From Escherichia coli (GTDB lineage Bacteria > Pseudomonadota > Gammaproteobacteria > Enterobacterales > Enterobacteriaceae), in NCBI RefSeq assembly GCF_013122565.1, contig NZ_CP053258.1: a stretch of DNA of 64,000 bases; one strand, written 5' to 3'. A program made the position numbers and the translations under genes. The first letter of the stretch is position 1. Every line of letters starts with the position of its first letter. Under the pieces are notes generated by a model. The model saw nothing but the letters and a program-made list of their open reading frames with translations, did no database searches and had not been told where the DNA came from. Below, piece by piece: positions 3,148 to 54,942 of the stretch.

Positions 3148-3204
3148 TTTTCGTTTATGATCATCAAGGCTTCCTTCGGGAAGCCTTTCTACGTTATCGC
3201 GCCA

Positions 3205-4404: not shown

Positions 4405-4515
4405 TAAACCTTGTTTAGTTAATTGCGTGATTATTCCGCGAAAACATTGCCAGATTGTTCAATACACTGCCACAAATCTTTTAATTCAGTATGTCTTGTT
4501 AATATTGAGGGCACC

Positions 4516-30747: not shown

Positions 30748-32031
30748 ATGACAGAAGCGATGAAAATTACCCTCTCTACCCAACCTGCCGACGCGCGCTG
30801 GGGAGAAAAAGCAACTTACAGCATTAATAATGACGGCATTACCCTGCATTTGAACGGGGCAGACGATCTGGGGCTGATCCAGCGTGCGGCGCGCAAAATT
30901 GACGGTCTGGGCATCAAACATGTTCAGCTAAGCGGTGAAGGCTGGGATGTGGATCGCTGCTGGGCATTCTGGCAAGGTTACAAAGCCCCGAAAGGCACGC
31001 GTAAAGTGGAGTGGCCGGATCTGGACGATGCCCAGCGCCAGGAACTGGATAACCGCCTGATGATCATCGACTGGGTGCGTGACACCATCAACGCACCGGC
31101 GGAAGAGCTGGGGCCATCGCAACTGGCACAGCGTGCTGTTGATCTGATCAGCAACGTCGCAGGCGATCGTGTGACTTATCGGATCACCAAAGGTGAAGAT
31201 CTGCGTGATCAAGGTTATATGGGGCTGCACACTGTCGGGCGCGGTTCAGAACGTTCTCCGGTATTGCTGGCGCTGGATTACAACCCAACTGGCGATAAAG
31301 AAGCACCGGTGTACGCGTGCCTGGTTGGTAAAGGCATCACTTTTGATTCCGGCGGCTACAGCATCAAACAGACTGCGTTTATGGACTCGATGAAGTCGGA
31401 CATGGGCGGCGCGGCAACGGTTGCCGGGGCGCTGGCATTTGCCATTACGCGCGGACTGAACAAGCGCGTGAAGCTGTTCCTCTGCTGTGCGGATAACCTG
31501 ATTAGCGGCAATGCGTTCAAGCTGGGCGATATCATCACCTATCGCAACGGTAAAAAAGTTGAAGTGATGAACACTGATGCCGAAGGGCGTCTGGTGCTGG
31601 CCGATGGTCTGATTGATGCCAGTGCGCAGAAACCGGAACTGATCATTGATGCGGCGACCCTCACCGGGGCGGCGAAAACCGCGCTGGGTAATGATTATCA
31701 TGCGCTGTTCAGTTTTGACGATGCGCTGGCCGGTCGCTTGCTGGCGAGTGCCGCGCAGGAGAACGAACCATTCTGGCGTCTGCCGCTGGCGGAATTCCAC
31801 CGCAGCCAGCTGCCGTCTAACTTTGCCGAACTGAACAATACCGGAAGCGCGGCGTACCCGGCAGGCGCGAGCACGGCGGCGGGCTTCCTGTCGCACTTTG
31901 TTGAGAACTATCAGCAAGGCTGGCTGCATATCGACTGCTCGGCGACTTACCGTAAAGCGCCGGTTGAACAGTGGTCTGCGGGTGCTACGGGACTTGGTGT
32001 GCGCACGATTGCTAATCTGTTAACGGCGTAA
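30748..32031 (+). CDS. pepB: Peptidase B (M17 leucyl aminopeptidase family)
   Basis: M17 signature [12 protein letters not shown]; start at internal ATG 30748 (AAGGA Shine-Dalgarno) giving 427 aa. Confidence 0.95.
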
Positions 32032-32039
32032 ACTAATAT

Positions 32040-32150
<111 letters not shown>

Positions 32151-32173: not shown

Positions 32174-32950
32174 ATGTCCGAAACAAAAAACGAACTTGAA
32201 GACCTGCTGGAAAAAGCAGCAACCGAACCGGCTCACCGCCCGGCCTTTTTCCGTACTCTACTGGAATCCACCGTCTGGGTGCCGGGTACGGCGGCGCAGG
32301 GCGAGGCAGTAGTTGAAGATAGCGCGCTTGATTTACAGCACTGGGAAAAAGAAGATGGCACCAGCGTCATTCCTTTTTTTACCTCGTTAGAAGCACTTCA
32401 ACAGGCGGTTGAAGACGAACAGGCATTTGTCGTAATGCCCGTTCGCACATTGTTTGAGATGACCCTTGGTGAAACGCTCTTCCTTAATGCCAAACTGCCA
32501 ACCGGTAAAGAGTTTATGCCGCGTGAAATCAGTTTGTTGATTGGTGAAGAAGGGAGTCCGCTGAGTAGTCAGGAAGTACTGGAAGGCGGTGAATCGCTGA
32601 TATTATCGGAAGTCGCAGAGCCGCCAGCACAAATGATTGATTCACTCACCACCTTATTTAAAACCATTAAGCCAGTGAAGCGTGCTTTTATTTGTTCAAT
32701 TAAAGAGAACGAAGAGGCACAGCCTAATTTACTTATTGGCATTGAAGCCGATGGTGATATCGAAGAAATTATTCAGGCGGCGGGAAGTGTAGCGACCGAT
32801 ACATTACCTGGCGATGAACCAATCGATATTTGTCAGGTGAAAAAAGGGGAAAAAGGAATTAGCCACTTTATTACCGAACATATTGCGCCATTCTATGAAC
32901 GTCGCTGGGGTGGTTTTTTGCGTGACTTTAAACAGAATCGGATAATCTAA
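32174..32950 (+). CDS. sseB: Protein SseB (enhances serine sensitivity)
   Basis: MSETKNELEDLLEKAATEPAHRPAFFRTLLEST...; 258 aa from ATG 32174; adjacent to pepB as in K-12. Confidence 0.88.
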   Translation: MSETKNELEDLLEKAATEPAHRPAFFRTLLESTVWVPGTAAQGEAVVEDSALDLQHWEKEDGTSVIPFFTSLEALQQAVEDEQAFVVMPVRTLFEMTLGETLFLNAKLPTGKEFMPREISLLIGEEGSPLSSQEVLEGGESLILSEVAEPPAQMIDSLTTLFKTIKPVKRAFICSIKENEEAQPNLLIGIEADGDIEEIIQAAGSVATDTLPGDEPIDICQVKKGEKGISHFITEHIAPFYERRWGGFLRDFKQNRII

Positions 32951-32953
32951 AAT

Positions 32954-32975
32954 ATGCCGCCCTAAAGGGCGGCAT
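32954..32975. terminator. Stem-loop after sseB, also positioned as terminator of the minus-strand toxin transcript
   Basis: atgccgccc taaa gggcggcat hairpin; on the minus strand it is followed by AUUUUA. Confidence 0.5.
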
Positions 32976-32981
32976 TCTGGC

Positions 32982-33119
32982 TTACCTGCTGTTCTGAAGG
33001 TTGTTAACCACCAGTAAATTGTCGCCGGAGAGACTCCGGTTATTATTTACCTCGGTTAACAGCGCACCAGAAACAATAAGTACGATACAGAAGCACCGTA
33101 TCTTCATTGTGCGGTCCAT
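32982..33119 (-). CDS. Small hydrophobic peptide, candidate type I toxin (TimP/RyfA-encoded-like), copy 1
   Basis: Minus-strand translation MDRTMKIRCFCIVLIVSGALLTEVNNNRSLSGDNLLVVNNLQNSR (internal Met gives 41 aa from 33107); single predicted TM-like segment; lies at the ryfA locus between sseB and sseA; below the 60-aa cutoff of the ORF track. Confidence 0.45.
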   Translation of the reverse strand: MDRTMKIRCFCIVLIVSGALLTEVNNNRSLSGDNLLVVNNLQNSR

Positions 33120-33330
33120 GCGAAGACCGCATCACGACAGCACCACTGGCGATATTGCCGCGATAGCAAGCGCTGAGACGCGCTTGCTCTAAAGGTCGCG
33201 GAACATCCTTTCCTTAAGCCAGCGCCCGCTTGCGAGACGGCGGAAAGGGCCGCAGTGGATAATACACTAACAGAACAATAATAACTCTCTTTTGCTTGAC
33301 AAAAAGAGAGTTACTGGCGAGTATTGTCTC

Positions 33331-33427
33331 CGCTGAGACGCGCTTGCATTACTACGGTAATACAACCTGCTGGAAAGGCCGCGAACCAAACCGGCAACAA
33401 ATAGCCGCCTGATTTTGGCGGTTTTTT
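33331..33427 (+). ncRNA. Divergent small RNA (TimR/RyfB-like antitoxin candidate), copy 1
   Basis: Sigma70-like promoter TTGACA (33296-33301), 17-bp spacer, GAGTAT (33319-33324); terminator ccgcc...ggcgg plus T6 at 33405-33427; 5-prime 17 nt (33331-33347) are the exact complement of the toxin mRNA leader segment at 33171-33187. Confidence 0.45.
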
Positions 33428-33552
33428 GTTGTTTAAAGAAAGTGAAATTACACGTTTAAGTAATATCTTTTATTGGTTAGTATTTTTAATATTAAGCGAA
33501 AATTGTTTATATTTGTCTGAATTCGGACTAATAAGTCAGGTTATTTTAATAT

Positions 33553-33628
33553 CGAACATATTGCGCCATTCTATGAATGTCGCTGGGGTGGGCTTTTGCG
33601 TGACTTTAAACAGAATCGGATAATCTAA
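33553..33628 (+). pseudogene. Duplicated 3-prime fragment of sseB (unit 2)
   Basis: Near-identical copy of sseB 32875-32950 including the stop codon and followed by a copy of the terminator hairpin; no upstream sseB sequence. Confidence 0.8.
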
Positions 33629-33659
33629 AATATGCCGCCCCAAAGGGCGGCATTCGGGC

Positions 33660-33797
33660 TTACTTGCTGCTCTGACGGTTGTTAACCACCAGTAAATTGT
33701 CGCCGGAGAGACTCCGGTTATTATTTACCTCGGTTAACAGCGCACCAGAAACAATAAGTACGATACAGAAGCACCGTATCTTCATTGTGCGGTCCAT
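33660..33797 (-). CDS. Small hydrophobic peptide, candidate type I toxin, copy 2
   Basis: Same ORF as copy 1 with identical hydrophobic core; C-terminal tail differs (…VVNNRQSSK). Confidence 0.45.
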   Translation of the reverse strand: MDRTMKIRCFCIVLIVSGALLTEVNNNRSLSGDNLLVVNNRQSSK

Positions 33798-34008
33798 GCG
33801 AAGACCGCATCACGACAGCACCACTGGCGATATTGCCGCGATAGCAAGCGCTGTGAAACACCTGCATTTACGGCCACGGAACATCCTTTCCTAAAGCCAG
33901 CGCCCGTTTGCGAGACGGCGGAAAGGGCCGGTGTCGATAATACGCTAAATAAACAATAATTACTCTCTTTTGCTTGACAAAAAGAGAGTTGCTGGCGAAT
34001 ATTGCTCT

Positions 34009-34109
34009 GCTGTGAAGCACCTGCGTTGCTCATGCAACACAAGTCAATCTGCTGGAGAGGCCGCGAACCAAACCGGCAACAAATAACCGCCTGATCTTGG
34101 CGGTTTTTT
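34009..34109 (+). ncRNA. Divergent small RNA (TimR/RyfB-like), copy 2
   Basis: TTGACA (33974-33979), 17-bp spacer, GAATAT (33997-34002); terminator at 34087-34109; 5-prime gctgtgaagcacctgc matches mRNA-leader segment 33850-33865 (two positions form G-U pairs). Confidence 0.45.
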
Positions 34110-34234
34110 GTTGCTTAAAGAAAGTGAATTTACATGTTTAAGTAATATCTTTTACCGGTTAGTATTTTTAATATTGAGCGGGATTTGTTTATATTTGTCT
34201 GAATTCGGACTAATAAGCCAGGTCATTTTAATAT

Positions 34235-34310
34235 CGAACATATTGCGCCATTCTATGAACGTCGCTGGGGTGGTTTTTTGCGTGACTTTAAACAGAATCG
34301 GATAATCTAA
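34235..34310 (+). pseudogene. Duplicated 3-prime fragment of sseB (unit 3)
   Basis: Identical to sseB 32875-32950 including stop; followed by terminator hairpin copy. Confidence 0.8.
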
Positions 34311-34341
34311 AATATGCCGCCCCAAAGGGCGGCATTCGGGC

Positions 34342-34479
34342 TTACCTGCTGTTCTGAAGGTTGTTAACCACCAATAAATTGTTGCCGGAGAGACTCCGGT
34401 TATTATTTACCTCAGTTAACAGCGCACCAGAAACAATAAGTACGATACAGAAGCACCGTATCTTCATTGTGCGGTCCAT
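34342..34479 (-). CDS. Small hydrophobic peptide, candidate type I toxin, copy 3
   Basis: Same ORF; relative to copy 1 two synonymous changes and one D-to-N change (…SLSGNNLLVV…). Confidence 0.45.
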   Translation of the reverse strand: MDRTMKIRCFCIVLIVSGALLTEVNNNRSLSGNNLLVVNNLQNSR

Positions 34480-34693
34480 GCGAAGACCGCATCACGACAG
34501 CACCACTGGCGATATTGCCGCGATAGCAAGCACTGTGGGGTGCCTGTATTTACGGTCATGGAACATCCTTTCCTAAAGCCAGTGCCCGTTTGCGAGACGG
34601 CGAAAAGGGCCGTTAAGAATAATACTCTCATGTTTGAATAATTACTCTGTTTATTATCTTGACATGGCCAGGCATAAAAGAGAGTATTTCAAC

Positions 34694-34793
34694 ACTGTGG
34701 GGTGCCTGCGTTGCTCCGGCAACACAAGCCAACCTGCTGGAAAGGCCGCGAACCAGACCAGCAATAAAAAACCGCCAAATTCGGCGGTTTTTT
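34694..34793 (+). ncRNA. Divergent small RNA (TimR/RyfB-like), copy 3
   Basis: TTGACA (34659-34664), 17-bp spacer, GAGTAT (34682-34687); terminator accgcc...ggcgg plus T6 at 34771-34793; 5-prime cactgtggggtgcctg equals mRNA-leader segment 34531-34546. Confidence 0.45.
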
Positions 34794-34809
34794 ATTGCCT
34801 GTAAAAAGC

Positions 34810-35655
34810 TTATTTCACTGGCTCAACCGGTAAATCTGCCCGCGCGCCCCATTCACTCCATGCGCCGTCGTACAGTTTCACGTTTGGCACATCCAGCGTC
34901 GCGAGTGCCAACAAAACCACGGCTGCTGTTACACCAGAGCCGCAGCTGACGATAATCGGTTTGTCATAGCTGACGCCGCGACCAAAAAATATCGCATCCA
35001 GTTCATCGGTCGTTTTTAGTTCGCCTTCGCGCACCAGTTCCGTCCACGGAACGTTCAATGCACCGGGAATATGTCCGCGACGTAAACCTGGGCGAGGTTC
35101 ATCAACTTCTGCGTTAAAACGTGCAGCCGGGCGGGCATCAACAATTTGCGCCGTATTTTCATGGCTTGCCAATAATACATCGGTTACTTTCACCACGGCT
35201 TCAGGATTAAACGCGGCGTTAAACTCTCCTTCCGGCAGCTCTACTGCACCTTCTTCTAACAACAGATCATCGCGCTGCCAGCCTGCAAGTCCACCCCCCA
35301 GAATCGACACTTTCTCTACACCAAAGGTGCGCAGCATCCACCATGCTCGTGGGGCTGAGAAAAGATTACCTTCGTCATAGACAATCAGGTGCTTATCCTG
35401 GTTAACGCCTAATTCACGCATTGCCACGGCGAACGTTTCCGGGCGCGGCAGCATGTGCGGAAGCGGGGAAGTGTGATCAGAAAGCGCTTCGATATCAAAA
35501 AACACTGCGCCGGGAATATGTCCATTCAGATACTCCTGAGCAACGTTACGATCTTCCTGTCCAGGCGACGCCATGCGGGCATCGATAATCTGAATTTCCG
35601 GGTCATCAATATGTTCGGCGAGCCAGTCGGCTCCTACAAACCATGTCGTGGACAT
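34810..35655 (-). CDS. sseA: 3-mercaptopyruvate sulfurtransferase (rhodanese family)
   Basis: Translation from internal ATG begins MSTTWFVGADWLAEHIDDPEIQIIDARM...; tandem rhodanese domains; 281 aa. Confidence 0.92.
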   Translation of the reverse strand: MSTTWFVGADWLAEHIDDPEIQIIDARMASPGQEDRNVAQEYLNGHIPGAVFFDIEALSDHTSPLPHMLPRPETFAVAMRELGVNQDKHLIVYDEGNLFSAPRAWWMLRTFGVEKVSILGGGLAGWQRDDLLLEEGAVELPEGEFNAAFNPEAVVKVTDVLLASHENTAQIVDARPAARFNAEVDEPRPGLRRGHIPGALNVPWTELVREGELKTTDELDAIFFGRGVSYDKPIIVSCGSGVTAAVVLLALATLDVPNVKLYDGAWSEWGARADLPVEPVK

Positions 35656-35861
35656 AGGCATCTCCATTTTTGCCGGGGTTAGGCTAAATTGTCGGATGTT
35701 TAGTGAAAAGCGACAAGCAAAAGAGGCTGATTTGGCTGTCTGAGCCACAATTCTCACTAAAATTCGGATTGTATGGGCGTGATACTGAATTACATAACGT
35801 AAATTCTCACGCATAATAATTATTCGACGTTGCTAACGGGCCATTGTGGCAGGGATGAAAA

Positions 35862-38800
35862 ATGAAAAAGTTACGCTTAGCCGCCTGCATGCTAATGCTG
35901 GCGCTGGCAGGGTGCGACAACAACGATAACGCGCCAACAGCGGTGAAAAAAGATGCGCCTTCTGAAGTTACTAAAGCGGCCTCTTCAGAAAACGCGAGTT
36001 CAGCAAAACTCTCCGCGCCAGAGCGACAAAAACTGGCACAACAGAGTGCCGGTAAGGCGCTGACATTGCTGGATCTCGCTGAAGTCCAACTTGATGGTGC
36101 AGCCACGCTGGTGCTGACGTTCTCCATCCCTCTCGACCCGGATCAGGATTTCTCACGCGTTATTCATGTCGTCGATAAAAAAAGCGGCAAAGTGGATGGT
36201 GCCTGGGAGCTGTCAGATAATCTTAAAGAGCTGCGTTTACGCCACCTCGAACCGAAACGTGATTTGATCGTTACTATTGGCAAGGAGGTCAAAGCACTCA
36301 ACAACGCAACCTTCAGTAAAGATTACGAAAAAACTATAACTACCCGCGACATCCAACCCAGCGTCGGTTTTGCCAGCCGTGGTTCGCTGCTGCCTGGTAA
36401 AGTCGTTGAAGGGCTGCCGGTAATGGCGCTCAACGTTAATAATGTCGATGTTAACTTCTTCCGCGTTAAGCCAGAATCTCTGCCAGCATTCATTAGCCAA
36501 TGGGAATACCGCAATTCGCTGGCGAACTGGCAGTCAGACAAACTGCTGCAGATGGCGGATCTGGTCTACACCGGACGGTTTGATCTCAATCCTGCGCGTA
36601 ACACCCGTGAAAAATTATTGCTGCCGCTGGGCGATATCAAACCGCTTCAGCAGGCGGGCGTGTATCTGGCTGTGATGAATCAGGCTGGACGTTACGATTA
36701 CAGTAATCCCGCGACGCTGTTTACGTTAAGTGATATCGGCGTTTCAGCTCACCGTTATCACAATCGTCTGGATATCTTTACCCAAAGTCTGGAAAACGGC
36801 GCGGCCCAGCAAGGAATTGAAGTCTCTTTATTAAATGAGAAAGGGCAGACTCTGACTCAGGCAACAAGTGACGCTCAGGGGCATGTGCAGCTGGAAAATG
36901 ATAAAAATGCGGCATTACTGCTGGCACGTAAAGACGGTCAGACAACGCTACTCGATTTAAAACTTCCGGCGCTGGACTTAGCAGAATTTAACATTGCTGG
37001 CGCGCCAGGCTATAGCAAACAGTTTTTCATGTTTGGCCCGCGCGATCTTTATCGCCCAGGTGAAACGGTCATCCTCAATGGTTTGCTGCGTGATGCAGAC
37101 GGTAAAGCGTTGCCCGATCAACCCATCAAGTTAGACGTGATTAAACCCGACGGGCAGGTACTCAGGAGCGTCGTTAGTCAGCCGGAGAATGGCCTCTACC
37201 ACTTAACCTGGCCACTCGATAGCAATGCGGCAACCGGTATGTGGCATATTCGCGCTAACACGGGCGATAACCAGTATCGGATGTGGGATTTCCACGTCGA
37301 AGATTTTATGCCAGAGCGCATGGCGCTGAATCTGACCGGTGAGAAAACCCCGCTTATGCCGAAAGATGAAGTGAAATTCTCCGTGGTGGGGTACTACCTG
37401 TACGGTGCACCTGCTAATGGTAATACTTTGCAAGGGCAACTTTTCCTGCGCCCACTGCGTGACGCTGTGTCAGCCTTACCTGGTTTTGAATTCGGCGATA
37501 TAGCTGCCGAAAACCTTTCCCGCACGCTGGATGAAGTTCAGTTGACGCTGGATGATAAAGGGCGCGGCGAAGTTTCTACAGAAAGCCAGTGGAAGGAAAC
37601 GCATTCCCCATTACAGGTTATTTTCCAGGGTAGTTTGCTGGAATCGGGCGGTCGCCCGGTGACGCGCCGCGCTGAGCAGGCTATCTGGCCTGCCGATGCA
37701 TTGCCGGGGATCCGTCCGCAGTTCGCCTCGAAATCGGTTTACGATTATCGCACTGACAGCACGGTGAAACAGCTCATTGTTGATGAAGGCAGTAACGCCG
37801 CTTTTGACATCGTTTATAGCGATGCGCAAGGCGTGAAAAAAGCTGTGTCGGGCTTGCAAGTGCGCCTGATTCGCGAACGCCGTGATTACTACTGGAACTG
37901 GTCAGAAGATGAAGGCTGGCAGTCACAGTTTGATCAAAAAGATCTGATCGAAAATGAACAAACTCTGGATCTTCAGGCGGATGAAACCGGTAAGGTCAGT
38001 TTCCCGGTAGAGTGGGGCGCTTATCGTCTGGAAGTCAAAGCGCCGAATGAAGCGGTCAGTAGCGTGCGTTTCTGGGCTGGCTATAGCTGGCAGGACAACA
38101 GCGACGGGAGCGGTACCGTGCGACCCGACCGTGTCACGCTGAAACTGGATAAAGCCAGTTATCGCCCTGGCGATACCATCAAGTTGCATATTGCCGCGCC
38201 AACGGCGGGTAAAGGTTATGCGATGGTCGAGTCCAGTGAAGGGCCGCTGTGGTGGCAAGAGATTGATGTTCCGGCTCAAGGGCTAGATCTGACGATTCCG
38301 GTCGATAAAACCTGGCATCGTCATGATCTGTATTTAAGTACACTGGTGGTACGTCCTGGCGATAAATCTCGCTCCGCGACGCCAAAACGCGCGGTTGGGG
38401 TGTTGCATCTTCCGCTTGGTGATGAAAACCGTCGCCTCGATCTGGCGCTGGAAACACCAGCAAAAATGCGTCCCAATCAGCCATTAACCGTGAAAATTAA
38501 AGCCAGCAATAAAAATGGTGAGATGCCAAAACAGGTGAATGTGCTGGTGTCTGCCGTTGATAGCGGTGTGCTGAATATTACTGACTACGTTACCCCCGAT
38601 CCGTGGCAGGCGTTCTTTGGTCAGAAACGCTATGGTGCAGACATTTACGATATTTACGGTCAGGTCATTGAAGGTCAGGGGCGTCTGGCAGCTCTGCGTT
38701 TTGGTGGCGATGGTGATGAGCTGAAACGTGGTGGTAAACCGCCGGTCAATCACGTCAATATTGTCGCGCAGCAGGCGCTGCCGGTAACGCTCAATGAACA

Positions 38801-40823
38801 GGGCGAAGGCTCGGTTACACTGCCAATTGGCGATTTTAACGGTGAATTACGCGTCATGGCGCAAGCCTGGACGGCAGATGACTTCGGTAGCAACGAAAGC
38901 AAAGTGATAGTTGCCGCACCGGTGATTGCTGAACTGAACATGCCGCGCTTTATGGCGAGTGGCGATACCTCGCGTCTGACGCTGGATATCACTAATCTTA
39001 CCGATAAACCGCAAAAACTGAACGTTGCCCTGACCGCCAGTGGTTTGCTTGAACTGGTCAGCGATTCACCCGCAGCCGTTGAATTAGCGCCAGGTGTGCG
39101 TACTACGCTGTTTATCCCGGTGCGAGCATTGCCGGGTTATGGCGATGGAGAAATTCAGGCCACCATTAGCGGGTTAGCGTTACCGGGTGAAACCGTTGCC
39201 GATCAGCATAAGCAGTGGAAAATCGGCGTCCGTCCGGCGTTCCCGGCACAAACGGTTAATGACGGTACGGCGTTGCAGCCTGGTGAGTCATGGGCGATTC
39301 CGGCGGATGGATTGCAAAACTTCTCGCCTGTTACGCTGGAAGGGCAATTGTTGTTGAGCGGCAAACCACCGCTGAACATCGCACGTTATATCAAAGAGTT
39401 AAAAGCGTATCCGTACGGCTGTCTCGAGCAAACCGCCAGCGGCCTGTTCCCGTCACTTTATACCAACGCAGCCCAACTGCAGGCGTTGGGCATCAAAGGC
39501 GACAGTGATGAGAAACGCCGTGCATCGGTCGATATCGGCATTTCCCGTTTGCTGCAAATGCAACGTGATAACGGCGGCTTTGCGCTGTGGGATAAAAACG
39601 GTGACGAAGAGTACTGGCTGACGGCTTACGTGATGGATTTCCTGGTCCGCGCAGGCGAACAGGGTTACAGCGTGCCGACAGACGCCATTAACCGGGGTAA
39701 TGAGCGTCTGCTGCGCTATTTACAAGATCCGGGCATGATGTCGATCCCGTACGCGGATAATCTCAAAGCCAGTAAATTCGCCGTACAGTCTTACGCTGCG
39801 CTGGTGTTGGCCCGTCAGCAAAAGGCTCCACTGGGTGCGCTGCGTGAAATCTGGGAGCATCGTGCAGATGCCGCTTCTGGTTTACCGCTGCTGCAACTTG
39901 GCGTTGCGCTGAAAACCATGGGTGATGCAACGCGTGGTGAAGAAGCGATTGTGCTGGCGCTGAAAACGCAGAGAAATAGTGATGAGCGGATATGGCTGGG
40001 TGATTACGGTAGTCCACTGCGCGACAACGCGTTAATGCTCTCCTTGCTGGAAGAAAATAAACTGCTACCCGATGAGCAGTACACTTTGCTGAACACACTT
40101 TCGCAGCAGGCGTTTGGTGAACGCTGGCTATCGACGCAGGAAAGTAACGCGTTGTTCCTGGCTGCCCGTACGATTCAGGATTTACCGGGTAAATGGCAGG
40201 CGCAAACCTCTTTCTCATCTGAGCCGCTGATAGGCGAGAAAGCGCAAAACAGCACTCTGAATAGCGATCAACTTGCCACCTTGCAGGTGACCAACAGTGG
40301 CGATCAGCCGTTATGGCTGCGTGTGGATGCCAGCGGTTATCCGCAATCCGCACCTTTACCGGCGAACAATGTGCTGCAAATCGAGCGTCATATTCTTGGT
40401 ACTGATGGTAAGAGCAAATCGCTGGACTCGTTACGTAGCGGCGATCTGGTGCTGGTCTGGTTGCAGGTAAAAGCCAGTAACAGCGTGCCAGATGCGTTAG
40501 TCGTGGATTTGCTGCCTGCGGGTCTGGAACTGGAAAACCAGAATCTGGCGAACGGTAGCGCCAGCCTGGAGCAAAGTGGTGGCGAAGTGCAAAACTTACT
40601 GAACCAGATGCAGCAGGCGAGTATTAAGCACATTGAGTTCCGTGACGATCGCTTTGTGGCGGCGGTTGCCGTTGATGAATACCAACCGGTAACGCTGGTG
40701 TATCTGGCGCGGGCGGTGACGCCGGGAACGTATCAGGTACCGCAACCGATGGTGGAATCAATGTATGTTCCCCAATGGCGGGCGACTGGCGCGGCTGAAG
40801 ATCTGCTGATTGTCAGACCGTAA
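35862..40823 (+). CDS. yfhM: Alpha-2-macroglobulin family lipoprotein
   Basis: Lipoprotein signal MKKLRLAACMLMLALAGC; thioester motif GCLEQ (about 39420); 1653 aa. Confidence 0.93.
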   Translation: MKKLRLAACMLMLALAGCDNNDNAPTAVKKDAPSEVTKAASSENASSAKLSAPERQKLAQQSAGKALTLLDLAEVQLDGAATLVLTFSIPLDPDQDFSRVIHVVDKKSGKVDGAWELSDNLKELRLRHLEPKRDLIVTIGKEVKALNNATFSKDYEKTITTRDIQPSVGFASRGSLLPGKVVEGLPVMALNVNNVDVNFFRVKPESLPAFISQWEYRNSLANWQSDKLLQMADLVYTGRFDLNPARNTREKLLLPLGDIKPLQQAGVYLAVMNQAGRYDYSNPATLFTLSDIGVSAHRYHNRLDIFTQSLENGAAQQGIEVSLLNEKGQTLTQATSDAQGHVQLENDKNAALLLARKDGQTTLLDLKLPALDLAEFNIAGAPGYSKQFFMFGPRDLYRPGETVILNGLLRDADGKALPDQPIKLDVIKPDGQVLRSVVSQPENGLYHLTWPLDSNAATGMWHIRANTGDNQYRMWDFHVEDFMPERMALNLTGEKTPLMPKDEVKFSVVGYYLYGAPANGNTLQGQLFLRPLRDAVSALPGFEFGDIAAENLSRTLDEVQLTLDDKGRGEVSTESQWKETHSPLQVIFQGSLLESGGRPVTRRAEQAIWPADALPGIRPQFASKSVYDYRTDSTVKQLIVDEGSNAAFDIVYSDAQGVKKAVSGLQVRLIRERRDYYWNWSEDEGWQSQFDQKDLIENEQTLDLQADETGKVSFPVEWGAYRLEVKAPNEAVSSVRFWAGYSWQDNSDGSGTVRPDRVTLKLDKASYRPGDTIKLHIAAPTAGKGYAMVESSEGPLWWQEIDVPAQGLDLTIPVDKTWHRHDLYLSTLVVRPGDKSRSATPKRAVGVLHLPLGDENRRLDLALETPAKMRPNQPLTVKIKASNKNGEMPKQVNVLVSAVDSGVLNITDYVTPDPWQAFFGQKRYGADIYDIYGQVIEGQGRLAALRFGGDGDELKRGGKPPVNHVNIVAQQALPVTLNEQGEGSVTLPIGDFNGELRVMAQAWTADDFGSNESKVIVAAPVIAELNMPRFMASGDTSRLTLDITNLTDKPQKLNVALTASGLLELVSDSPAAVELAPGVRTTLFIPVRALPGYGDGEIQATISGLALPGETVADQHKQWKIGVRPAFPAQTVNDGTALQPGESWAIPADGLQNFSPVTLEGQLLLSGKPPLNIARYIKELKAYPYGCLEQTASGLFPSLYTNAAQLQALGIKGDSDEKRRASVDIGISRLLQMQRDNGGFALWDKNGDEEYWLTAYVMDFLVRAGEQGYSVPTDAINRGNERLLRYLQDPGMMSIPYADNLKASKFAVQSYAALVLARQQKAPLGALREIWEHRADAASGLPLLQLGVALKTMGDATRGEEAIVLALKTQRNSDERIWLGDYGSPLRDNALMLSLLEENKLLPDEQYTLLNTLSQQAFGERWLSTQESNALFLAARTIQDLPGKWQAQTSFSSEPLIGEKAQNSTLNSDQLATLQVTNSGDQPLWLRVDASGYPQSAPLPANNVLQIERHILGTDGKSKSLDSLRSGDLVLVWLQVKASNSVPDALVVDLLPAGLELENQNLANGSASLEQSGGEVQNLLNQMQQASIKHIEFRDDRFVAAVAVDEYQPVTLVYLARAVTPGTYQVPQPMVESMYVPQWRATGAAEDLLIVRP

Positions 40824-43136
40824 ATGCCTCGCCTGTTAACCAAACGCGGCTGCTGGATAACGCTGGCAGCTGCGCCCTTTCTCCTTTTTCTTGCAGCGTG
40901 GGGAGCAGATAAACTCTGGCCTCTACCGCTGCATGAAGTCAATCCCGCACGAGTGGTCGTGGCGCAGGATGGTACGCCGCTCTGGCGCTTCGCCGATGCT
41001 GACGGCATCTGGCGTTATCCGGTAACAATCGAAGATGTTTCTCCACGTTACCTTGAAGCGCTGATCAATTATGAAGATCGCTGGTTCTGGAAGCATCCGG
41101 GGGTGAATCCATTCTCGGTGGCGCGCGCAGCATGGCAAGATCTCACTTCGGGACGGGTTATTTCCGGTGGCAGCACGCTCACTATGCAGGTTGCTCGTCT
41201 GCTTGATCCTCACCCCAAAACATTTGGCGGCAAAATTCGCCAGCTCTGGCGCGCGTTGCAACTGGAGTGGCATTTGTCTAAGCGTGAAATTCTGACCTTG
41301 TATCTTAACCGCGCTCCGTTTGGCGGTACGTTGCAGGGGATCGGTGCGGCAAGTTGGGCTTATCTCGGAAAATCGTCTGCGAATTTAAGCTATTCCGAGG
41401 CGGCAATGCTGGCGGTGTTGCCGCAAGCGCCCAGCCGACTGCGCCCGGATCGCTGGCCGGAACGTGCCGAAGCCGCGCGTAATAAAGTGCTCGAACGGAT
41501 GGCTGCGCAAGGTGTGTGGTCCCGTGAGCAGGTAAAAGAGTCAAGGGAAGAACCCATCTGGCTGGCACCCCGACAAATGCCGCAACTGGCACCGCTGTTT
41601 TCGCGCATGATGCTCGGTAAAAGCAAAAGCGACAAAATTGTTACTACGCTGGATGCCGGTCTTCAACGACGTCTGGAAGAACTGGCGCAAAACTGGAAAG
41701 GACGATTACCACCGAGCAGCTCACTGGCGATGATCGTGGTTGATCATACCGATATGCGTGTTCGCGGCTGGGTGGGATCGGTTGATCTCAACGATGATTC
41801 ACGCTTTGGTCATGTCGATATGGTCAATGCGATCCGATCGCCAGGATCGGTGCTCAAACCGTTTGTTTATGGTCTGGCGCTGGATGAAGGCTTGATCCAC
41901 CCGGCATCACTGCTGCAAGACGTCCCCCGGCGCACCGGTGATTATCGACCAGGTAATTTTGATGGCGGTTTTCATGGCCCGATCAGCATGAGCGAGGCGC
42001 TGGTGCGCTCGCTGAATTTACCTGCTGTGCAGGTGCTGGAAGCCTATGGCCCGAAACGGTTTGCGGCAAAGTTACGCAATGTTGGATTGCCGTTATATTT
42101 GCCCAACGGTGCTGCGCCGAATCTTTCACTCATACTCGGCGGCGCTGGTGCAAAACTGGAAGATATGGCGGCAGCGTATACCGCGTTTGCTCGCCACGGC
42201 AAGGCAGGCAAATTGCGCTTACAGCCTGACGATCCGCTGCTTGAACGGCCTTTAATGTCGTCGGGGGCGGCGTGGATCATTCGCCGGATTATGGCTGATG
42301 AAGCGCAACCCTTGCCGGATAGTGCCTTGCCGCGCGTCGCCCCACTGGCATGGAAAACGGGCACCAGCTATGGCTATCGTGATGCCTGGGCGATTGGGGT
42401 TAACGCTCGCTATGTCATTGGGATCTGGACTGGCAGACCGGATGGCACGCCCGTTGTTGGTCAGTTTGGCTTTGCCAGCGCCGTACCGCTGTTGAATCAG
42501 GTTAATAATATCTTATTGTCGCGCAGTGCTAATCTGCCGGAAGACCCGCGCCCGAACTCAGTCACTCGTGGCGTTATCTGCTGGCCGGGCGGACAGTCTT
42601 TGCCGGAAGGTGACGGTAACTGTCGCCGCCGCCTGGCAACCTGGTTGCTGGACGGGAGCCAGCCGCCAACTCTATTACTGCCGGAGCAGGAAGGCATTAA
42701 TGGCATTCGTTTTCCCATCTGGCTGGATGAAAACGGCAAACGTGTTGCCGCTGATTGCCCTCAGGCGCGACAAGAAATGATAAATGTCTGGCCGCTACCG
42801 CTGGAACCCTGGTTGCCCGCATCAGAACGCCGCGCTGTGCGCTTACCACCGGCCTCGACAATTTGCCCGCCATACGGTCACGATGCACAACTCCCGCTGC
42901 AGCTGACAGGCGTTCGCGATGGCGCGATTATTAAACGTTTACCGGGCGCAGCAGAAGCGACTTTGCCGGTGCAATCAAGTGGAGGAGCAGGTGAACGCTG
43001 GTGGTTTCTGAATGGCGAACCGTTAACTGAACGCGGGCGCAACGTGACCCTGCATTTGATGGATAAAGGCGATTATCAATTGCTGGTGATGGATGAGGTG
43101 GGGCAAATCGCGACAGTGAAATTTGTCATGCAATAG
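40824..43136 (+). CDS. pbpC: Penicillin-binding protein 1C (transglycosylase/transpeptidase)
   Basis: 770 aa; glycosyltransferase family 51 N-terminal region plus transpeptidase region; start ATG immediately follows the yfhM stop. Confidence 0.93.
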   Translation: MPRLLTKRGCWITLAAAPFLLFLAAWGADKLWPLPLHEVNPARVVVAQDGTPLWRFADADGIWRYPVTIEDVSPRYLEALINYEDRWFWKHPGVNPFSVARAAWQDLTSGRVISGGSTLTMQVARLLDPHPKTFGGKIRQLWRALQLEWHLSKREILTLYLNRAPFGGTLQGIGAASWAYLGKSSANLSYSEAAMLAVLPQAPSRLRPDRWPERAEAARNKVLERMAAQGVWSREQVKESREEPIWLAPRQMPQLAPLFSRMMLGKSKSDKIVTTLDAGLQRRLEELAQNWKGRLPPSSSLAMIVVDHTDMRVRGWVGSVDLNDDSRFGHVDMVNAIRSPGSVLKPFVYGLALDEGLIHPASLLQDVPRRTGDYRPGNFDGGFHGPISMSEALVRSLNLPAVQVLEAYGPKRFAAKLRNVGLPLYLPNGAAPNLSLILGGAGAKLEDMAAAYTAFARHGKAGKLRLQPDDPLLERPLMSSGAAWIIRRIMADEAQPLPDSALPRVAPLAWKTGTSYGYRDAWAIGVNARYVIGIWTGRPDGTPVVGQFGFASAVPLLNQVNNILLSRSANLPEDPRPNSVTRGVICWPGGQSLPEGDGNCRRRLATWLLDGSQPPTLLLPEQEGINGIRFPIWLDENGKRVAADCPQARQEMINVWPLPLEPWLPASERRAVRLPPASTICPPYGHDAQLPLQLTGVRDGAIIKRLPGAAEATLPVQSSGGAGERWWFLNGEPLTERGRNVTLHLMDKGDYQLLVMDEVGQIATVKFVMQ

Positions 43137-43284
43137 TCTGTTTTGTCCCTGATTGTTGCTTAAACTGGGTTTATTTTAAAAAAATGTTACCTTCAGCAAT
43201 AGTCAACGGCCCTGTTGCTCATTATAATCCGCGCCATCTCGTACGCTGGTACAGACAACAACAGAACAATTTACAGAGGTAAAC

Positions 43285-43716
43285 ATGGCTATTGAACGTA
43301 CTTTTTCCATCATCAAACCGAACGCGGTAGCAAAAAACGTCATTGGTAATATCTTTGCGCGCTTTGAAGCTGCAGGGTTCAAAATTGTCGGCACCAAAAT
43401 GCTGCACCTGACCGTTGAACAGGCTCGTGGCTTTTATGCTGAACACGATGGAAAACCGTTCTTTGATGGTCTGGTTGAATTCATGACCTCTGGCCCGATC
43501 GTGGTTTCCGTGCTGGAAGGTGAAAACGCCGTTCAGCGTCACCGCGATCTGCTGGGCGCGACCAATCCGGCAAACGCACTGGCCGGTACTCTGCGCGCTG
43601 ATTACGCTGACAGCCTGACCGAAAATGGTACCCACGGTTCTGATTCCGTCGAATCTGCCGCTCGCGAAATCGCTTATTTTTTCGGCGAAGGCGAAGTGTG
43701 CCCGCGCACCCGTTAA
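43285..43716 (+). CDS. ndk: Nucleoside diphosphate kinase
   Basis: [28 protein letters not shown]... with active-site NGTHGSDS; 143 aa. Confidence 0.97.
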
Positions 43717-43775
43717 TAATTTCGTAAATGCCGCGTGCAAACGTGGCATCCGTGCGCCAGAATTTGTACAATGAA

Positions 43776-43819
43776 GCGCCCCCGGACGAGCAGCCGCTCA
43801 CCGGGGCGTTTCTTTTTTC
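43776..43819 (+). terminator. Rho-independent terminator downstream of ndk
   Basis: GC-rich stem gcgcccccgg...ccggggcg followed by tttcttttttc. Confidence 0.7.
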
Positions 43820-43865
43820 AACCCTCCAGGGGCCATAACGTGTAATAACGAGGCCGGAATAGCAT

Positions 43866-45020
43866 ATGTCTGAACAATTAGTCACACCTGAAAACGTCAC
43901 CACGAAAGATGGAAAAATCAACCTGCTGGATCTCAACCGTCAGCAGATGCGGGAGTTTTTTAAAGATTTAGGTGAAAAACCCTTCCGCGCCGATCAGGTG
44001 ATGAAGTGGATGTATCACTATTGCTGCGACAACTTTGATGAGATGACCGACATCAACAAAGTGTTGCGCGGCAAACTGAAAGAGGTGGCGGAGATCCGCG
44101 CACCGGAAGTGGTTGAAGAACAGCGTTCATCTGACGGCACCATTAAATGGGCGATCGCCGTTGGCGATCAGCGCGTCGAAACGGTGTATATCCCGGAAGA
44201 CGACCGTGCCACGCTCTGCGTCTCTTCGCAGGTGGGGTGTGCGCTGGAGTGTAAATTCTGTTCCACCGCCCAGCAGGGCTTTAACCGCAACCTGCGGGTA
44301 TCGGAAATTATCGGTCAGGTGTGGCGTGCGGCGAAAATCGTCGGCGCAGCAAAAGTCACCGGTCAGCGCCCAATCACTAACGTAGTGATGATGGGCATGG
44401 GCGAGCCGCTGCTCAACCTGAACAACGTCGTTCCGGCGATGGAAATCATGCTTGATGATTTCGGTTTTGGCCTGTCTAAACGTCGCGTCACGCTTTCTAC
44501 TTCCGGTGTAGTTCCGGCGCTGGATAAACTGGGCGATATGATCGACGTTGCACTGGCAATTTCCCTGCACGCGCCGAACGACGAAATTCGTGACGAAATT
44601 GTGCCGATCAACAAAAAGTACAATATCGAAACGTTCCTTGCTGCGGTGCGCCGTTATCTGGAGAAATCCAACGCCAATCAGGGCCGAGTCACTATTGAAT
44701 ACGTGATGCTTGACCACGTTAACGACGGCACTGAACACGCGCACCAACTGGCGGAACTGCTGAAAGATACGCCGTGTAAGATCAACCTGATCCCGTGGAA
44801 CCCGTTCCCGGGTGCGCCGTATGGACGCAGCTCGAACAGCCGTATCGACCGTTTCTCAAAAGTGCTGATGAGCTACGGTTTCACCACTATTGTGCGTAAA
44901 ACTCGTGGTGATGATATCGATGCTGCCTGTGGTCAGTTGGCGGGCGATGTTATCGACCGTACAAAACGTACCCTGCGTAAACGGATGCAGGGTGAAGCCA
45001 TCGACATTAAAGCGGTCTGA
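43866..45020 (+). CDS. rlmN: 23S rRNA m2A2503 / tRNA m2A37 methyltransferase, radical SAM
   Basis: Radical SAM motif [10 protein letters not shown]; 384 aa. Confidence 0.95.
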
Positions 45021-45025
45021 TAGCC

Positions 45026-45067
45026 ATTACGCCACGGTTACTTTATGTACCGTGGCGTAATGTTTTA
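45026..45067 (+). terminator. Stem-loop terminator downstream of rlmN
   Basis: 13-bp stem attacgccacggt / accgtggcgtaat, 10-nt loop, followed by gtttta. Confidence 0.55.
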
Positions 45068-45304
45068 TGAATGAAGTATTAAGTTGCAATTGTCTGGTCA
45101 ATATTAACGGTGCGTTTTTGCTGACTTTAAGGCAGTATGTAACGATGCAACAGTAAGTTAGCCTTAGTGAATGTGGGCTTTGTCACGAGCACACAGACGG
45201 TCTTATACTGTATGATAACGGTTAACTTAACGGATGTTTCGCGGTGTGGGTGAGCATGATGGTTCACCGGCATCTCAATTCTCATTTAAACGTACCTGCA
45301 GCGA

Positions 45305-46318
45305 ATGAATACTGAAGCCACGCACGACCAAAATGAAGCACTTACTACCGGCGCTCGCCTGCGTAATGCTCGCGAACAACTAGGACTTAGTCAGCAGGCC
45401 GTTGCCGAGCGACTTTGCCTGAAGGTTTCCACGGTACGCGACATTGAAGAAGATAAGGCACCCGCCGATCTTGCTTCAACATTCCTGCGCGGATATATCC
45501 GCTCTTATGCGCGTCTGGTACATATTCCAGAAGAAGAACTGCTGCCAGGGCTGGAAAAGCAGGCTCCACTACGGGCTGCAAAAGTTGCGCCGATGCAGAG
45601 TTTTTCCCTCGGTAAACGCCGCAAAAAACGTGACGGCTGGCTGATGACCTTCACCTGGCTGGTGTTGTTTGTGGTTATCGGCCTGAGCGGTGCCTGGTGG
45701 TGGCAAGACCACAAAGCTCAGCAGGAAGAGATCACCACTATGGCCGATCAATCTTCGGCGGAACTGAGCAGTAATAGCGAGCAGGGGCAGAGTGTTCCGT
45801 TAAATACGTCGACAACTACAGATCCGGCTACAACGTCCACGCCGCCAGCGTCTGTGGATACTACCGCAACCAACACGCAAACACCTGCCGTAACTGCGCC
45901 AGCACCAGCTGTTGATCCGCAACAGAATGCGGTTGTCTCGCCTTCGCAGGCAAATGTTGAGACCGCCGCGACCCCGGCACCAACGGCAACAACAACGCCA
46001 GATGGCGCTGCGCCGTTGCCAACCGATCAGGCTGGCGTGACCACGCCGGCGGCTGATCCGAATGCGCTGGTGATGAACTTTACTGCCGATTGCTGGCTGG
46101 AGGTCACTGATGCTACCGGTAAAAAATTGTTTAGCGGTATGCAGCGTAAAGACGGTAATTTGAACTTAACCGGCCAGGCACCGTACAAACTGAAAATTGG
46201 TGCGCCAGCCGCAGTACAGATCCAGTATCAAGGGAAACCTGTCGATCTGAGTCGTTTTATCAGAACTAACCAGGTTGCGCGTCTGACCCTCAATGCCGAA
46301 CAATCACCGGCGCAGTAA
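45305..46318 (+). CDS. rodZ: Cytoskeleton protein RodZ
   Basis: N-terminal HTH, single TM segment ([21 protein letters not shown]), T/P-rich linker; 337 aa. Confidence 0.94.
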
Positions 46319-52558: not shown

Positions 52559-52767
52559 TATCATCTGAATGTATGGTTTTATCATTTGTATTTAATATAT
52601 AAATGATAAAGCCATCTCTTATTGGTTAAATCACTAGTACATGTGAGTGAAATCATTTTGATAAATTTTTAGGAATATATTTAGTTTTTCTGACGTGCCT
52701 TCCTGAATGTTCTGGCATAGAATATTAGAGCTTATTCATCAAATTATCATTGCCACAGGGAAAGTGC

Positions 52768-54942
52768 ATGCTGCGATGGAGTCGCTTTATAATGTTACTA
52801 TTTATCTCTGCTGCAACTCCTGCGGCAGAGATAAATAGTAAGCAAAATGAATCGTTACCTGATTTAGGCAGCCAGGCGGCTCAACAAGTAGAACAAACGG
52901 ATAAGGGTAAATCGTTAAAAGAGCGTGGAGCCGATTACGTCATCGATTCTGCTACGCAAGGGTTCGAAAACCTGACCCCCGAGGCGCTGGAATCTCAGGC
53001 CAGAAGCTATCTGCAAAGTCAAATCACCTCAACCGCGCAATCTTATATTGAAGAGACACTCTCTCCCTACGGTAAGGTCCGTTCGAATCTCTCTATTGGT
53101 CAAGGTGGCGATCTGGATGGTAGCTCCATCGATTATTTTGTTCCCTGGTATGATAATCAAACGACCGTTTATTTCAGTCAATTTTCTGCGCAACGAAAAG
53201 AGGACCGTACGATCGGGAATATCGGAATTGGAGCAAGACATAATTTCGATGAATGGCTTTTGGGTGGAAATATATTTTACGATTATGATTTCACCCGTGG
53301 GCATCGACGTTTAGGTTTGGGGACAGAGGCCTGGACCAATTATTTAAAATTTTCTGGCAACTATTATCATCCGCTCTCTGACTGGAAAGACTCTGAAGAT
53401 TTCGACTTTTATGAAGAGCGCCCTGCGCGCGGTTGGGATATTCGCGCTGAAGCCTGGTTACCTTCTTATCCGCAACTGGGGGGCAAAATTGTCTTCGAGC
53501 AATATTACGGTGATGAAGTCGCCCTTTTTGGTACGGATAATTTAGAGAAAGATCCCTATGCGGTGACGCTAGGACTGAATTATCAACCGGTACCGTTACT
53601 GACAGTTGGAACGGATTATAAAGCGGGGACAGGAGATAACAGCGATGTCAGCATTAATGCCACTCTTAATTATCAATTCGGCGTTCCGCTAAAAGATCAA
53701 CTCGACAGCAATAAAGTAAAAGCAGCCCACTCGTTGATGGGCAGTCGCCATGATTTTGTCGAGCGTAATAACTTTATCGTCCTGGAATATAAAGAGAAAG
53801 ACCCTCTGGATGTGACGTTGTGGCTGAAAGCGGATGCGACCAACGAGCACCCTGAGTGCGTCATTAAGGACACTCCAGAAGCGGCGATCGGGCTGGAAAA
53901 ATGTAAGTGGACCATTAACGCACTGATCAATCACCACTACAAAATTGTCGCTGCGTCATGGCAGGCGAAAAACAATGCCGCCCGCACGCTGGTGATGCCG
54001 GTCATCAAAGAAAATACCATCACTGAAGGCAACAACAACCACTGGAATCTGATACTGCCAGCCTGGCAGTACAGCTCTGACAAAGCCGAGCAGGAAAAAC
54101 TCAACACCTGGCGGGTACGGCTGGCGCTGGAAGATGAAAAGGGTAATCGGCAAAACTCCGGCCTGGTTGAGATCACCGTTCAGCAGGACCGTAAAATTGA
54201 GCTGACCGTCAATAACATTGCTGATGTGCCTGATGAGAATAACCACAGCCATGAAGCCAGCGCTCAGGCGGATGGCGTTGATGGTGTGGTCATGGACCTC
54301 GAGGTGACGGACAGTTTTGGCGATAACACGGACCGCAACGGTGATGCTCTGCCAGAAGATAATCTTGCACCGCAGCTCTACGACGCTCAGGACAAAAAAG
54401 TCACGCTAACCAATAAACCCTGCTCGACCGACAACCCCTGCGTGTTTATTGCCAAACAAGATAAAGAAAAGGGAACGGTAACCCTCTCCAGTACATTGCC
54501 AGGCGTTTTCCGCTGGAAAGCGAAAGCGGCTCCCTACGATGACAGTAACTATGTGGATGTCACGTTTATTGGATCTGATATCGGCGGGCTTAATGCTTTC
54601 ATTTACCGGCTTGGGGGAGCGAAGCCAGTCAATTTGATCGGCAATGATAAAGACCCCCTGCCGCTGGGCAACACGTACCGATTTGTGTTGTGGCGTGATG
54701 CCAACAAAGACGGCGTTTTTCAGCAGTCGGAAAAACTAACCGATGAAGAGATGACTCAGTACGACTACAAGTGGGAATTTACCGGCAAGAGCATCAATGG
54801 CGAAGTAGGTGCGCAGGCGAACACATCCAATGCAGACATTGTAATACCGGCGACCAACCGTGAAGCGGCGCAATCCTATGGTGCAAAAGTGGAAGATGGC
54901 TTGCAGGGTTACGGTTTACGCGTGCTGTACACCAAAAAATAA
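52768..54942 (+). CDS. sinH: Intimin/invasin-family outer membrane protein (inverse autotransporter), SinH-like
   Basis: Signal peptide MLRWSRFIMLLFISAATPAAE; central region aligns by eye with the invasin/intimin beta-barrel domain (…EAWTNYLKFSGNYYHP…ERPARGWDIRAEAWLPSYPQLGGKIVFEQYYGDEVALFG…RNNFIVLEYKE); ATG at 52768 (track ORF starts at upstream TTG). Confidence 0.8.
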   Translation: MLRWSRFIMLLFISAATPAAEINSKQNESLPDLGSQAAQQVEQTDKGKSLKERGADYVIDSATQGFENLTPEALESQARSYLQSQITSTAQSYIEETLSPYGKVRSNLSIGQGGDLDGSSIDYFVPWYDNQTTVYFSQFSAQRKEDRTIGNIGIGARHNFDEWLLGGNIFYDYDFTRGHRRLGLGTEAWTNYLKFSGNYYHPLSDWKDSEDFDFYEERPARGWDIRAEAWLPSYPQLGGKIVFEQYYGDEVALFGTDNLEKDPYAVTLGLNYQPVPLLTVGTDYKAGTGDNSDVSINATLNYQFGVPLKDQLDSNKVKAAHSLMGSRHDFVERNNFIVLEYKEKDPLDVTLWLKADATNEHPECVIKDTPEAAIGLEKCKWTINALINHHYKIVAASWQAKNNAARTLVMPVIKENTITEGNNNHWNLILPAWQYSSDKAEQEKLNTWRVRLALEDEKGNRQNSGLVEITVQQDRKIELTVNNIADVPDENNHSHEASAQADGVDGVVMDLEVTDSFGDNTDRNGDALPEDNLAPQLYDAQDKKVTLTNKPCSTDNPCVFIAKQDKEKGTVTLSSTLPGVFRWKAKAAPYDDSNYVDVTFIGSDIGGLNAFIYRLGGAKPVNLIGNDKDPLPLGNTYRFVLWRDANKDGVFQQSEKLTDEEMTQYDYKWEFTGKSINGEVGAQANTSNADIVIPATNREAAQSYGAKVEDGLQGYGLRVLYTKK

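Follow-up and report, generated by a model that had tools for sequence, protein, structure and literature searches.

The intergenic region between sseB and sseA in a 64,000-nucleotide stretch of Escherichia coli DNA (contig NZ_CP053258.1, assembly GCF_013122565.1; hereafter the window) very probably contains, in tandem, three complete modules of the timP/timR (ryfA/ryfB) type I toxin–antitoxin system. All parts of the module are present and, judged by sequence, intact in each of the three units. On the minus strand each unit would produce a timP mRNA of ca. 305 nt encoding TimP, a 41-aa inner-membrane toxin bearing a Sec signal, and on the plus strand an antitoxin RNA of ca. 100 nt, TimR, transcribed from a divergent promoter; the 5' end of TimR would pair with stem-loop 2 (SL2) of its own timP, by the mechanism established for Salmonella. 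There, the toxic inner-membrane protein TimP is the product of ryfA, and its translation is blocked when the divergent small RNA (sRNA) TimR pairs with the 5' untranslated region (5'UTR) of timP (PMC7667032). The binding of TimR to SL2 destabilises an SL1–SL3 pseudoknot required for timP translation (PMC11228461). The toxicity of over-expressed TimP and its repression by TimR have been shown for Salmonella only (PMC7667032, PMC11228461). The array is a rare three-module variant of this characterised system, visible in RefSeq annotation and apparently undiscussed in the literature; a literature search found no published description of three ryfA/timP copies, while two copies have been published. 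The units, defined by repeat search, alignment and classification, are the following (coordinates are those of the window):

32867..33544: repeat unit 1, 678 bp, type A (CGCGT allele)
33545..34226: repeat unit 2, 682 bp, type B (TGTTT allele)
34227..34809: repeat unit 3, 583 bp, type C (CACCC allele), without the AT-rich spacer

Each unit carries one timP copy with one TimP open reading frame (ORF):

32949..33253, minus strand: timP-A mRNA (ryfA copy 1), 305 nt; Rfam RF00126, 314.0 bits, full model
33627..33931, minus strand: timP-B mRNA (ryfA copy 2); Rfam RF00126, 316.0 bits
34309..34613, minus strand: timP-C mRNA (ryfA copy 3); Rfam RF00126, 324.1 bits
32982..33107, minus strand: TimP ORF 1, 41 aa; NCBIfam NF040796 (toxic_TimP), 84.2 bits
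33660–33785, minus strand: TimP ORF 2, 41 aa; NF040796, 84.3 bits
34342–34467, minus strand: TimP ORF 3, 41 aa; NF040796, 84.2 bits

The three RF00126 matches pass the gathering threshold of 80 bits and cover model positions 1–296 of 296 untruncated; being full-length, with E-values of 1e-87 to 1e-90, they are not chance similarities. The three 41-aa ORFs pass the curated cutoff of NF040796, a whole-protein hidden Markov model (45 bits), and timP is annotated at the sseB–sseA locus of E. coli in RefSeq. The timP AUG is located at +147 of the RNA in all three units; in ORF 1 an in-frame ATG further upstream, at 33119, would yield a protein of 45 aa. A TATTAT −10 box lies 5 nt before the ryfA 5' end in every unit. 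Also kept in all three are a candidate SL1 7-mer (nt 30–36, CGCUGGC or CACUGGC) and a candidate SL3 7-mer complementary to it (nt 104–110, GCCAGUG), and the SL4 hairpin, GCGGUCUUCGCAUGGACCGC, is conserved across the units. According to the terminator scan, the timP terminator hairpin serves in each unit also as the terminator of sseB or of its copied tail, sseB'; that of timP-A, at 32954–32975, is common to sseB.

The antitoxin RNAs are encoded on the opposite strand:

33331..33427, plus strand: TimR-A sRNA, ~97 nt, 5' end approximate; −35 box TTGACA at 33296–33301; terminator at 33403–33423
34009..34109, plus strand: TimR-B sRNA, ~101 nt; promoter TTGACA-18-AATATT at 33974–34003; terminator at 34085–34105
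34694..34793, plus strand: TimR-C sRNA, ~100 nt; −35 box TTGACA at 34659–34664

The terminators of TimR-A and TimR-B were recovered by the terminator scan, and that of TimR-C (CCGCCAAATTCGGCGG followed by a T-run, ~34768–34793), situated right before the sseA stop, was read by eye. The type of TimR terminator goes with the position in the array rather than with the type of the recognition patch described below.

Each unit has its own patch of 16–17 nt, which occurs twice as a direct repeat, once in timP SL2 and once at the TimR 5' end:

33171–33187 (timP SL2) and 33331–33347 (TimR 5' end): patch A, plus-strand CGCTGAGACGCGCTTGC, an exact 17-nt direct repeat
33850–33865 (timP SL2) and 34009–34024 (TimR 5' end): patch B, plus-strand GCTGTGAA(A/G)CACCTGC
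34531–34546 (timP SL2) and 34693–34708 (TimR 5' end): patch C, plus-strand CACTGTGGGGTGCCTG

Since the two copies of the repeat are transcribed from opposite strands, the patches of timP and TimR are complementary. On the RNA strand they read CGCGT (A), TGTTT (B), and CACCC (C), i.e., three of the four published variable-region alleles (TGTTT, CGCGT, CCCCC, and CACCC; PMC5333039). The SL2 hairpin is present in all three units (−17.3 kcal/mol for timP-A). The patch of TimR-B forms one G·U against timP-B, and the B pairing comprises 20 contiguous pairs when G·U is counted. In RNAduplex runs restricted to the 5' 32 nt of TimR and nt 50–100 of timP, the cognate duplex A/A reaches −38.2 kcal/mol with 17 contiguous Watson–Crick pairs, and B/B and C/C reach −40.1 kcal/mol each, while the non-cognate duplexes range from −15.1 to −30.7 kcal/mol. 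Runs on longer stretches (45 nt against 150 nt) gave long gapped duplexes and were set aside as uninformative. Because the SL2 and TimR patches differ among the units and match inside each of them, largely orthogonal behaviour is predicted for the three timP/TimR pairs, with every TimR repressing the toxin of its unit. The array would supply each cell with three near-identical toxin mRNAs differing essentially in the antitoxin-binding stem-loop, a natural 3×3 set for the study of RNA–RNA specificity.

The array is delimited by the coding sequences (CDS) of sseB and sseA, and units 2 and 3 open with a copy of the sseB end:

32174..32950, plus strand: sseB CDS, 258 aa (ORF list, RefSeq annotation of homologous loci, exact-protein lookup with Pfam SseB)
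34810..35655, minus strand: sseA CDS, 281 aa, bounding the array on the right (ORF list, RefSeq annotation of homologous loci)
33545..33628, plus strand: sseB' tail fragment 1, 84 bp; differs from authentic sseB at 5 positions, of which 3 fall within the last 76 bp
34227..34310, plus strand: sseB' tail fragment 2, 84 bp; no difference from authentic sseB over its last 76 bp

An earlier note on the window, made by reading its letters, had described a 1.86-kb sseB–sseA spacer built of three ~680-bp units, in agreement with the 1,859 bp measured between the ends of sseB (32950) and sseA (34810, minus strand) and with the three direct copies found by the repeat search, which start at 32867, 33545, and 34227 (spacing of 678 and 682 bp). 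The opening 300 nt of the units are 97–98% identical, and the mean column identity in a MAFFT alignment of all three is 88%. Tandem Repeats Finder, whose longest period is 500, reported no repeat in the array because the ~680-bp unit exceeds this limit. The note had the units called ryfA-like modules, as the RF00126 matches confirm, though their fuller identity, a timP/timR type I toxin–antitoxin, goes beyond an sRNA. It was also right that the tail of sseB opens units 2 and 3, the repeat having crossed the sseB 3' end; the tail is, however, 84 bp long rather than ~76 bp, its template being the final 84 bp of sseB (32867–32950). Over the last 76 bp the fragment of unit 3 has 0 mismatches and that of unit 2 has 3, matching the description of the former as identical and the latter as diverged. 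In RefSeq genomes of the same architecture these fragments are annotated as SseB pseudogene fragments. The diverged seeds that the note perceived are real as well: alignment columns ~306–335 and ~465–490 vary among the units and agree within each. Outside the array, between pepB and sseB, REP-like (repetitive extragenic palindrome-like) sequences are found at 32026-32122, with sub-threshold matches to naRNA4 (40.3 bits) and ES036 (28.9 bits).

The AT-rich spacer that the note placed, with a length of ~125 bp, after units 1 and 2 only occurs precisely there and measures 117 bp; its absence makes unit 3 shorter than the others (583 bp). The spacers and the Rfam matches that cover them are as follows:

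33428..33544: AT-rich inter-unit spacer 1, 117 bp, 24% GC
34110..34226: AT-rich inter-unit spacer 2, 117 bp, 30% GC
33385–33595, minus strand: IS128 match 1 (Rfam), spacer 1 with its flanks
34067–34277: IS128 match 2 (Rfam), within which spacer 2 lies

The GC content of the array is 46%. Neither the rest of the window nor single-unit loci nor other species yielded a homolog of the spacer. Promoter-like plus-strand sites are present inside the spacers (33486–33513 and 34168–34195), and 65-aa ORFs overlap them (33426–33623 and 34108–34305); the ORFs, with 7 amino-acid differences between the copies and out of the sseB frame, were taken as non-coding. The two matches to IS128 (RF00125) are full-length and score 203 and 225 bits against a threshold of 80 bits, and K-12-like genomes have one match of 261 bits. 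At every locus inspected the IS128 match is an inter-unit junction read on the minus strand, which runs from the complement of the TimR 3' end through the AT-rich spacer into the sseB' tail or, in K-12, into a remnant of the ryfA 5' end. Because its matches coincide with the junctions, IS128 is read as a structural by-product of the array without a separate function, and not as an independent gene. In terms of annotation, IS128 of Rfam seems to represent the junction of the timP/timR array.

The distribution of the modules was followed in 5,426 complete E. coli genomes, patch counts being word-based. The ryfA locus is present in 5,425 of them, mostly as a single copy, with 5,589 copies in total and a maximum of 3 per genome. 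These figures imply two units in ~156 genomes (~3%) and three units in at least 4 (~0.1%), since there are 164 excess copies and four genomes with three. The latter are strains MEW, 19KM1831, PapRG-04-4, and PapM-32-1, in all of which RefSeq annotates timP three times together with two SseB pseudogene fragments. The patches are distributed as follows:

type A: either patch in 4,543 genomes, cognate pair in 2,904
type B: either patch in 2,101 genomes, cognate pair in 1,930
type C: either patch in 577 genomes, cognate pair in 524

TimR-A without timP-A occurs in ~1,590 genomes. Among the 30 or so loci in which the arrangement was classified, the window has the order A|B|C, and so does strain MEW, with flanks of only 95–97% identity; the other arrays are B|A|C, B|A, B|C, and A|C. 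Single-unit loci comprise B in an O2:K2:H1 strain, C in O157:H7 and in the GTDB representative of E. coli, and A in one E. coli locus (L023) and in E. whittamii; type C is also present in Escherichia sp. E1V33. A scan of GTDB species representatives with the ryfA core pattern returned only 6 loci, each single-copy. In one three-unit array a type-C timP stands beside an orphan TimR-A. Exact matches to the SseB protein of the window are not lineage-specific and accompany single, K-12-like, and other arrangements. Over an 8-kb stretch (36000-44000) the identity to complete RefSeq E. coli genomes peaks at 98.3%, a value shared by many of them, which suggests that the lineage of the window lies outside the sampled complete genomes. 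A further observation concerns locus L010 (E. coli CB7286), where at 1540-1700 an orphan TimR-like gene with a TTGACA-17-GAGTAT promoter and a terminal-type terminator carries a fourth patch, GAGTAGACGAGATACACTTGCAGTAATAC, which matches no timP among those inspected.

In K-12-like genomes the second timP has been removed by a deletion, leaving a decayed two-unit array in the order timP-B, orphan TimR-A, AT-rich spacer, a 13–14-nt sseB' tail, and the cognate TimR-B. The non-cognate TimR-A is situated directly upstream of timP-B and TimR-B ~320 bp beyond, and a K-12 record has the matching spacing of 533 bp. The junction is exemplified by:

L002 (E. coli 3A, K-12 coordinates), 2196-2660: K-12-type junction; also in H231 K-12

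In such genomes (~1,500 of the 5,426) the TimR adjoining timP is therefore predicted to be non-cognate and the cognate one to lie farther away, which affects the design and reading of timR deletions and of ryfA phenotypes in E. coli. The single ryfA that the note gives for K-12 is correct, yet a fossil second unit, consisting of the orphan TimR, the spacer, and the short sseB' tail, has been kept. Two copies in Shigella dysenteriae are indeed published (PMC5333039), and the three copies of the window, going beyond both, form an expanded variant, as had been supposed; comparison with other genomes did not reveal the three-unit arrangement as a common state (at least 4 of 5,426).

In every locus inspected a cognate TimR is found near each intact timP, and orphan TimRs are frequent. 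Three genomes that appeared toxin-only in a BLAST screen were inspected. One has a single-nucleotide polymorphism in TimR-A with the pair intact, another an insertion sequence (IS) element between timP-B and TimR-B, both of which are kept, and the last has lost both promoters and SL1 through a deletion between the two patch repeats, which inactivates the toxin. A rule is suggested by this small sample and its word-based counts, of the kind that selection against an unrepressed toxin would produce. Rearrangements were noted at individual loci. In L032 (E. coli 06-00048), at 1500-1660, timP SL2 is joined directly to the body of TimR-C by a deletion between the type-C patch repeats of 16 nt, with loss of both promoters and SL1, and the TimR terminator is interrupted by ISEcB1. 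In L012 (E. coli Z0117EC0013), at 3190-5686, an ISEcp1–blaCTX-M-14 transposition unit sits precisely between the divergent promoters of timP and timR, parting the toxin gene from the antitoxin gene; in L031 this site is occupied by a different IS.

That the three copies are an assembly artefact, expanded from a locus of one or two units, is hardly credible, even though tandem repeats of ~680 bp are error-prone in assembly and the closest draft genome, GCA_052983875.1, holds two units. Each unit is unique in its patches, promoter regions, and TimR bodies, with only the 88% mean identity given above, and could not be created by an assembler from fewer copies; moreover, four RefSeq E. coli chromosomes share the three-unit architecture. 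The exact 1,653-aa YfhM of the window is encoded by two public contigs only, one from the Logan assembly of SRR11451224 and the other from GCA_052983875.1. The former, a short-read contig, is 100% identical over 34502–45823 and ends exactly 30 nt inside a 117-nt stretch that the three units share without a difference; a k=31 graph should break there when the unit is present at least twice, which supports multiple copies. The latter contains a B|C array without unit A and has 2 mismatches to the window across 33677–45823 and 28 (98.7% identity) across pepB–sseB, which makes it a different recombinant and not a collapsed copy. Because the window and GCA_052983875.1 are near-identical on one side and diverged on the other, with unit A absent from the latter, they differ by a recombination tract of ~3 kb that adds or removes one unit; its right end lies in the sseB' tail/timP 3' region of unit 2. 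Very unlikely, too, is the view that this strain recently multiplied a single ryfA module under selection for a higher RyfA/TimP dosage and that the copies drifted afterwards. The head-to-tail order of the units, their common precise junction at the sseB tail, and the high identity of their first 300 nt would fit it, as would the lower number of mismatches per 221 nt of the conserved timP body between units of one genome (4.4) than between genomes (~6.5), but the latter excess similarity fits gene conversion as well. Thousands of E. coli have the alleles A, B, and C as single copies, A is found in E. whittamii and C in Escherichia sp. E1V33, and the A|B|C order recurs in MEW with its less similar flanks (95–97% identity); drift, furthermore, would not make the toxin and antitoxin patches co-vary perfectly within units, as they do. 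The term amplification, applied to the array in the earlier note, is not to be taken as a recent event, the three units being old alleles. That the timP body tracks the specificity type was considered and rejected (6.4 mismatches per 221 nt within a type and 6.6 between types).

A further explanation accepts the array as real and holds that at least one unit is a silent remnant, or that the RNAs are mainly regulatory sRNAs of stress and virulence; it is unlikely, though by no means negligible. Decay of extra units is common, as the K-12-like genomes, which retain only TimR and the spacer of the second unit, and the ~1,590 genomes with an orphan TimR-A illustrate. The ryfA phenotypes of uropathogenic E. 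coli (UPEC) are independent of the TimP ORF, the deletion being complemented by ORF-less alleles (PMC8205139), and Salmonella is reported to grow after deletion of timR (PMC7667032). In the window, however, all three ORFs, SL2, SL4 and the candidate SL1 and SL3 elements, the terminators, and the cognate patches are intact, and the retention of a cognate TimR by each intact timP at every locus inspected is what selection against an unrepressed toxin predicts. Several points nevertheless weigh against the reading as three toxin–antitoxin modules. The UPEC phenotypes allow that the RNAs may act mainly as regulators. The orthogonality of the pairs is a thermodynamic prediction, and within it TimR-C with timP-B reaches −30.7 kcal/mol over 18 contiguous pairs, 6 of them G·U, which makes B/C cross-talk possible. 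The −10 boxes of TimR-A and TimR-C (GAGTAT) score under the threshold of the promoter scan, and the TimR 5' ends, positioned from promoter spacing, are approximate. Finally, the array model offers no source for the 117-bp spacer.

With three complete modules as the preferred reading, the array would represent three old specificity cassettes and no recent amplification in this strain, the cassettes being gained, lost, and reshuffled by homologous recombination via the conserved timP body and the copied sseB tail. Tentatively, and with more doubt than attaches to the array of the window, this may be extended to E. coli at large: the sseB–sseA spacer would be a polymorphic array of at least three orthogonal cassettes (A, B, and C), old and shuffled by recombination, in which every intact toxin keeps its cognate antitoxin and orphan antitoxins are tolerated. 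If this is true, the A|B|C array of the window is the full set of the three common types, and K-12 is the clearest case of the rule, with timP-B beside the non-cognate TimR-A and its real antitoxin, TimR-B, ~320 bp farther.

Apart from the array, the window contains an inverse autotransporter SinH (52750–54942; NF033423, 1465 bits) and SinI (54997–55974; NF040711, 322 bits), followed by an ORF of more than 2,642 aa that runs past the window end (64000) and is taken as a putative RatA-like giant surface protein in a CS54-like island.

Among the known systems, the modules resemble most closely timP–timR of Salmonella (Andresen et al. 2020; Eleftheraki & Holmqvist 2024), with which they share the sseB–sseA locus, RF00126 and NF040796, the pairing of SL2 in the 5'UTR with the 5' end of a divergently transcribed antitoxin, an SL4 hairpin around the start region, and, as candidates, mutually complementary SL1/SL3 elements. 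The Salmonella ORF starts at +145, compared with +147 in the window. Salmonella has one module, whereas the window has three in tandem with three recognition patches, known from sequence. In S. dysenteriae two tandem siblings, RyfA1 and RyfA2, were described, of which only RyfA1 is lowered by RyfB1 (Fris et al. 2017, PMC5333039). The likeness extends to the tandem ryfA genes, each with a divergent RNA of ~100 nt, and to the variable region that overlaps the complementarity; there, however, the units are two and the RNAs were treated as non-coding (PMC5333039), while the window brings together three units and three allele classes. The sibling pair is defined by two tandem ryfA genes that differ in their variable regions and are each accompanied by a divergent ryfB; the principle is shared, and the window, with three, exceeds this published architecture.

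Other tandem type I toxin–antitoxin loci of E. coli are ldr/rdl, ibs/sib, and zorO-orzO/zorP-orzP. They have in common with timP/timR a small membrane toxin, an RNA antitoxin, head-to-tail intergenic paralogs, and paralog-specific pairing, but are unrelated to it in sequence. Tandem repetition has been noted as a trait of type I toxin–antitoxin loci (PMC8594479), and zor/orz was likened to ryfA in the S. dysenteriae study (PMC5333039). What sets the timP/timR repeat apart from these loci is the piece of the adjacent gene included in it, its AT-rich spacer, and a copy number and cassette order that vary by strain.

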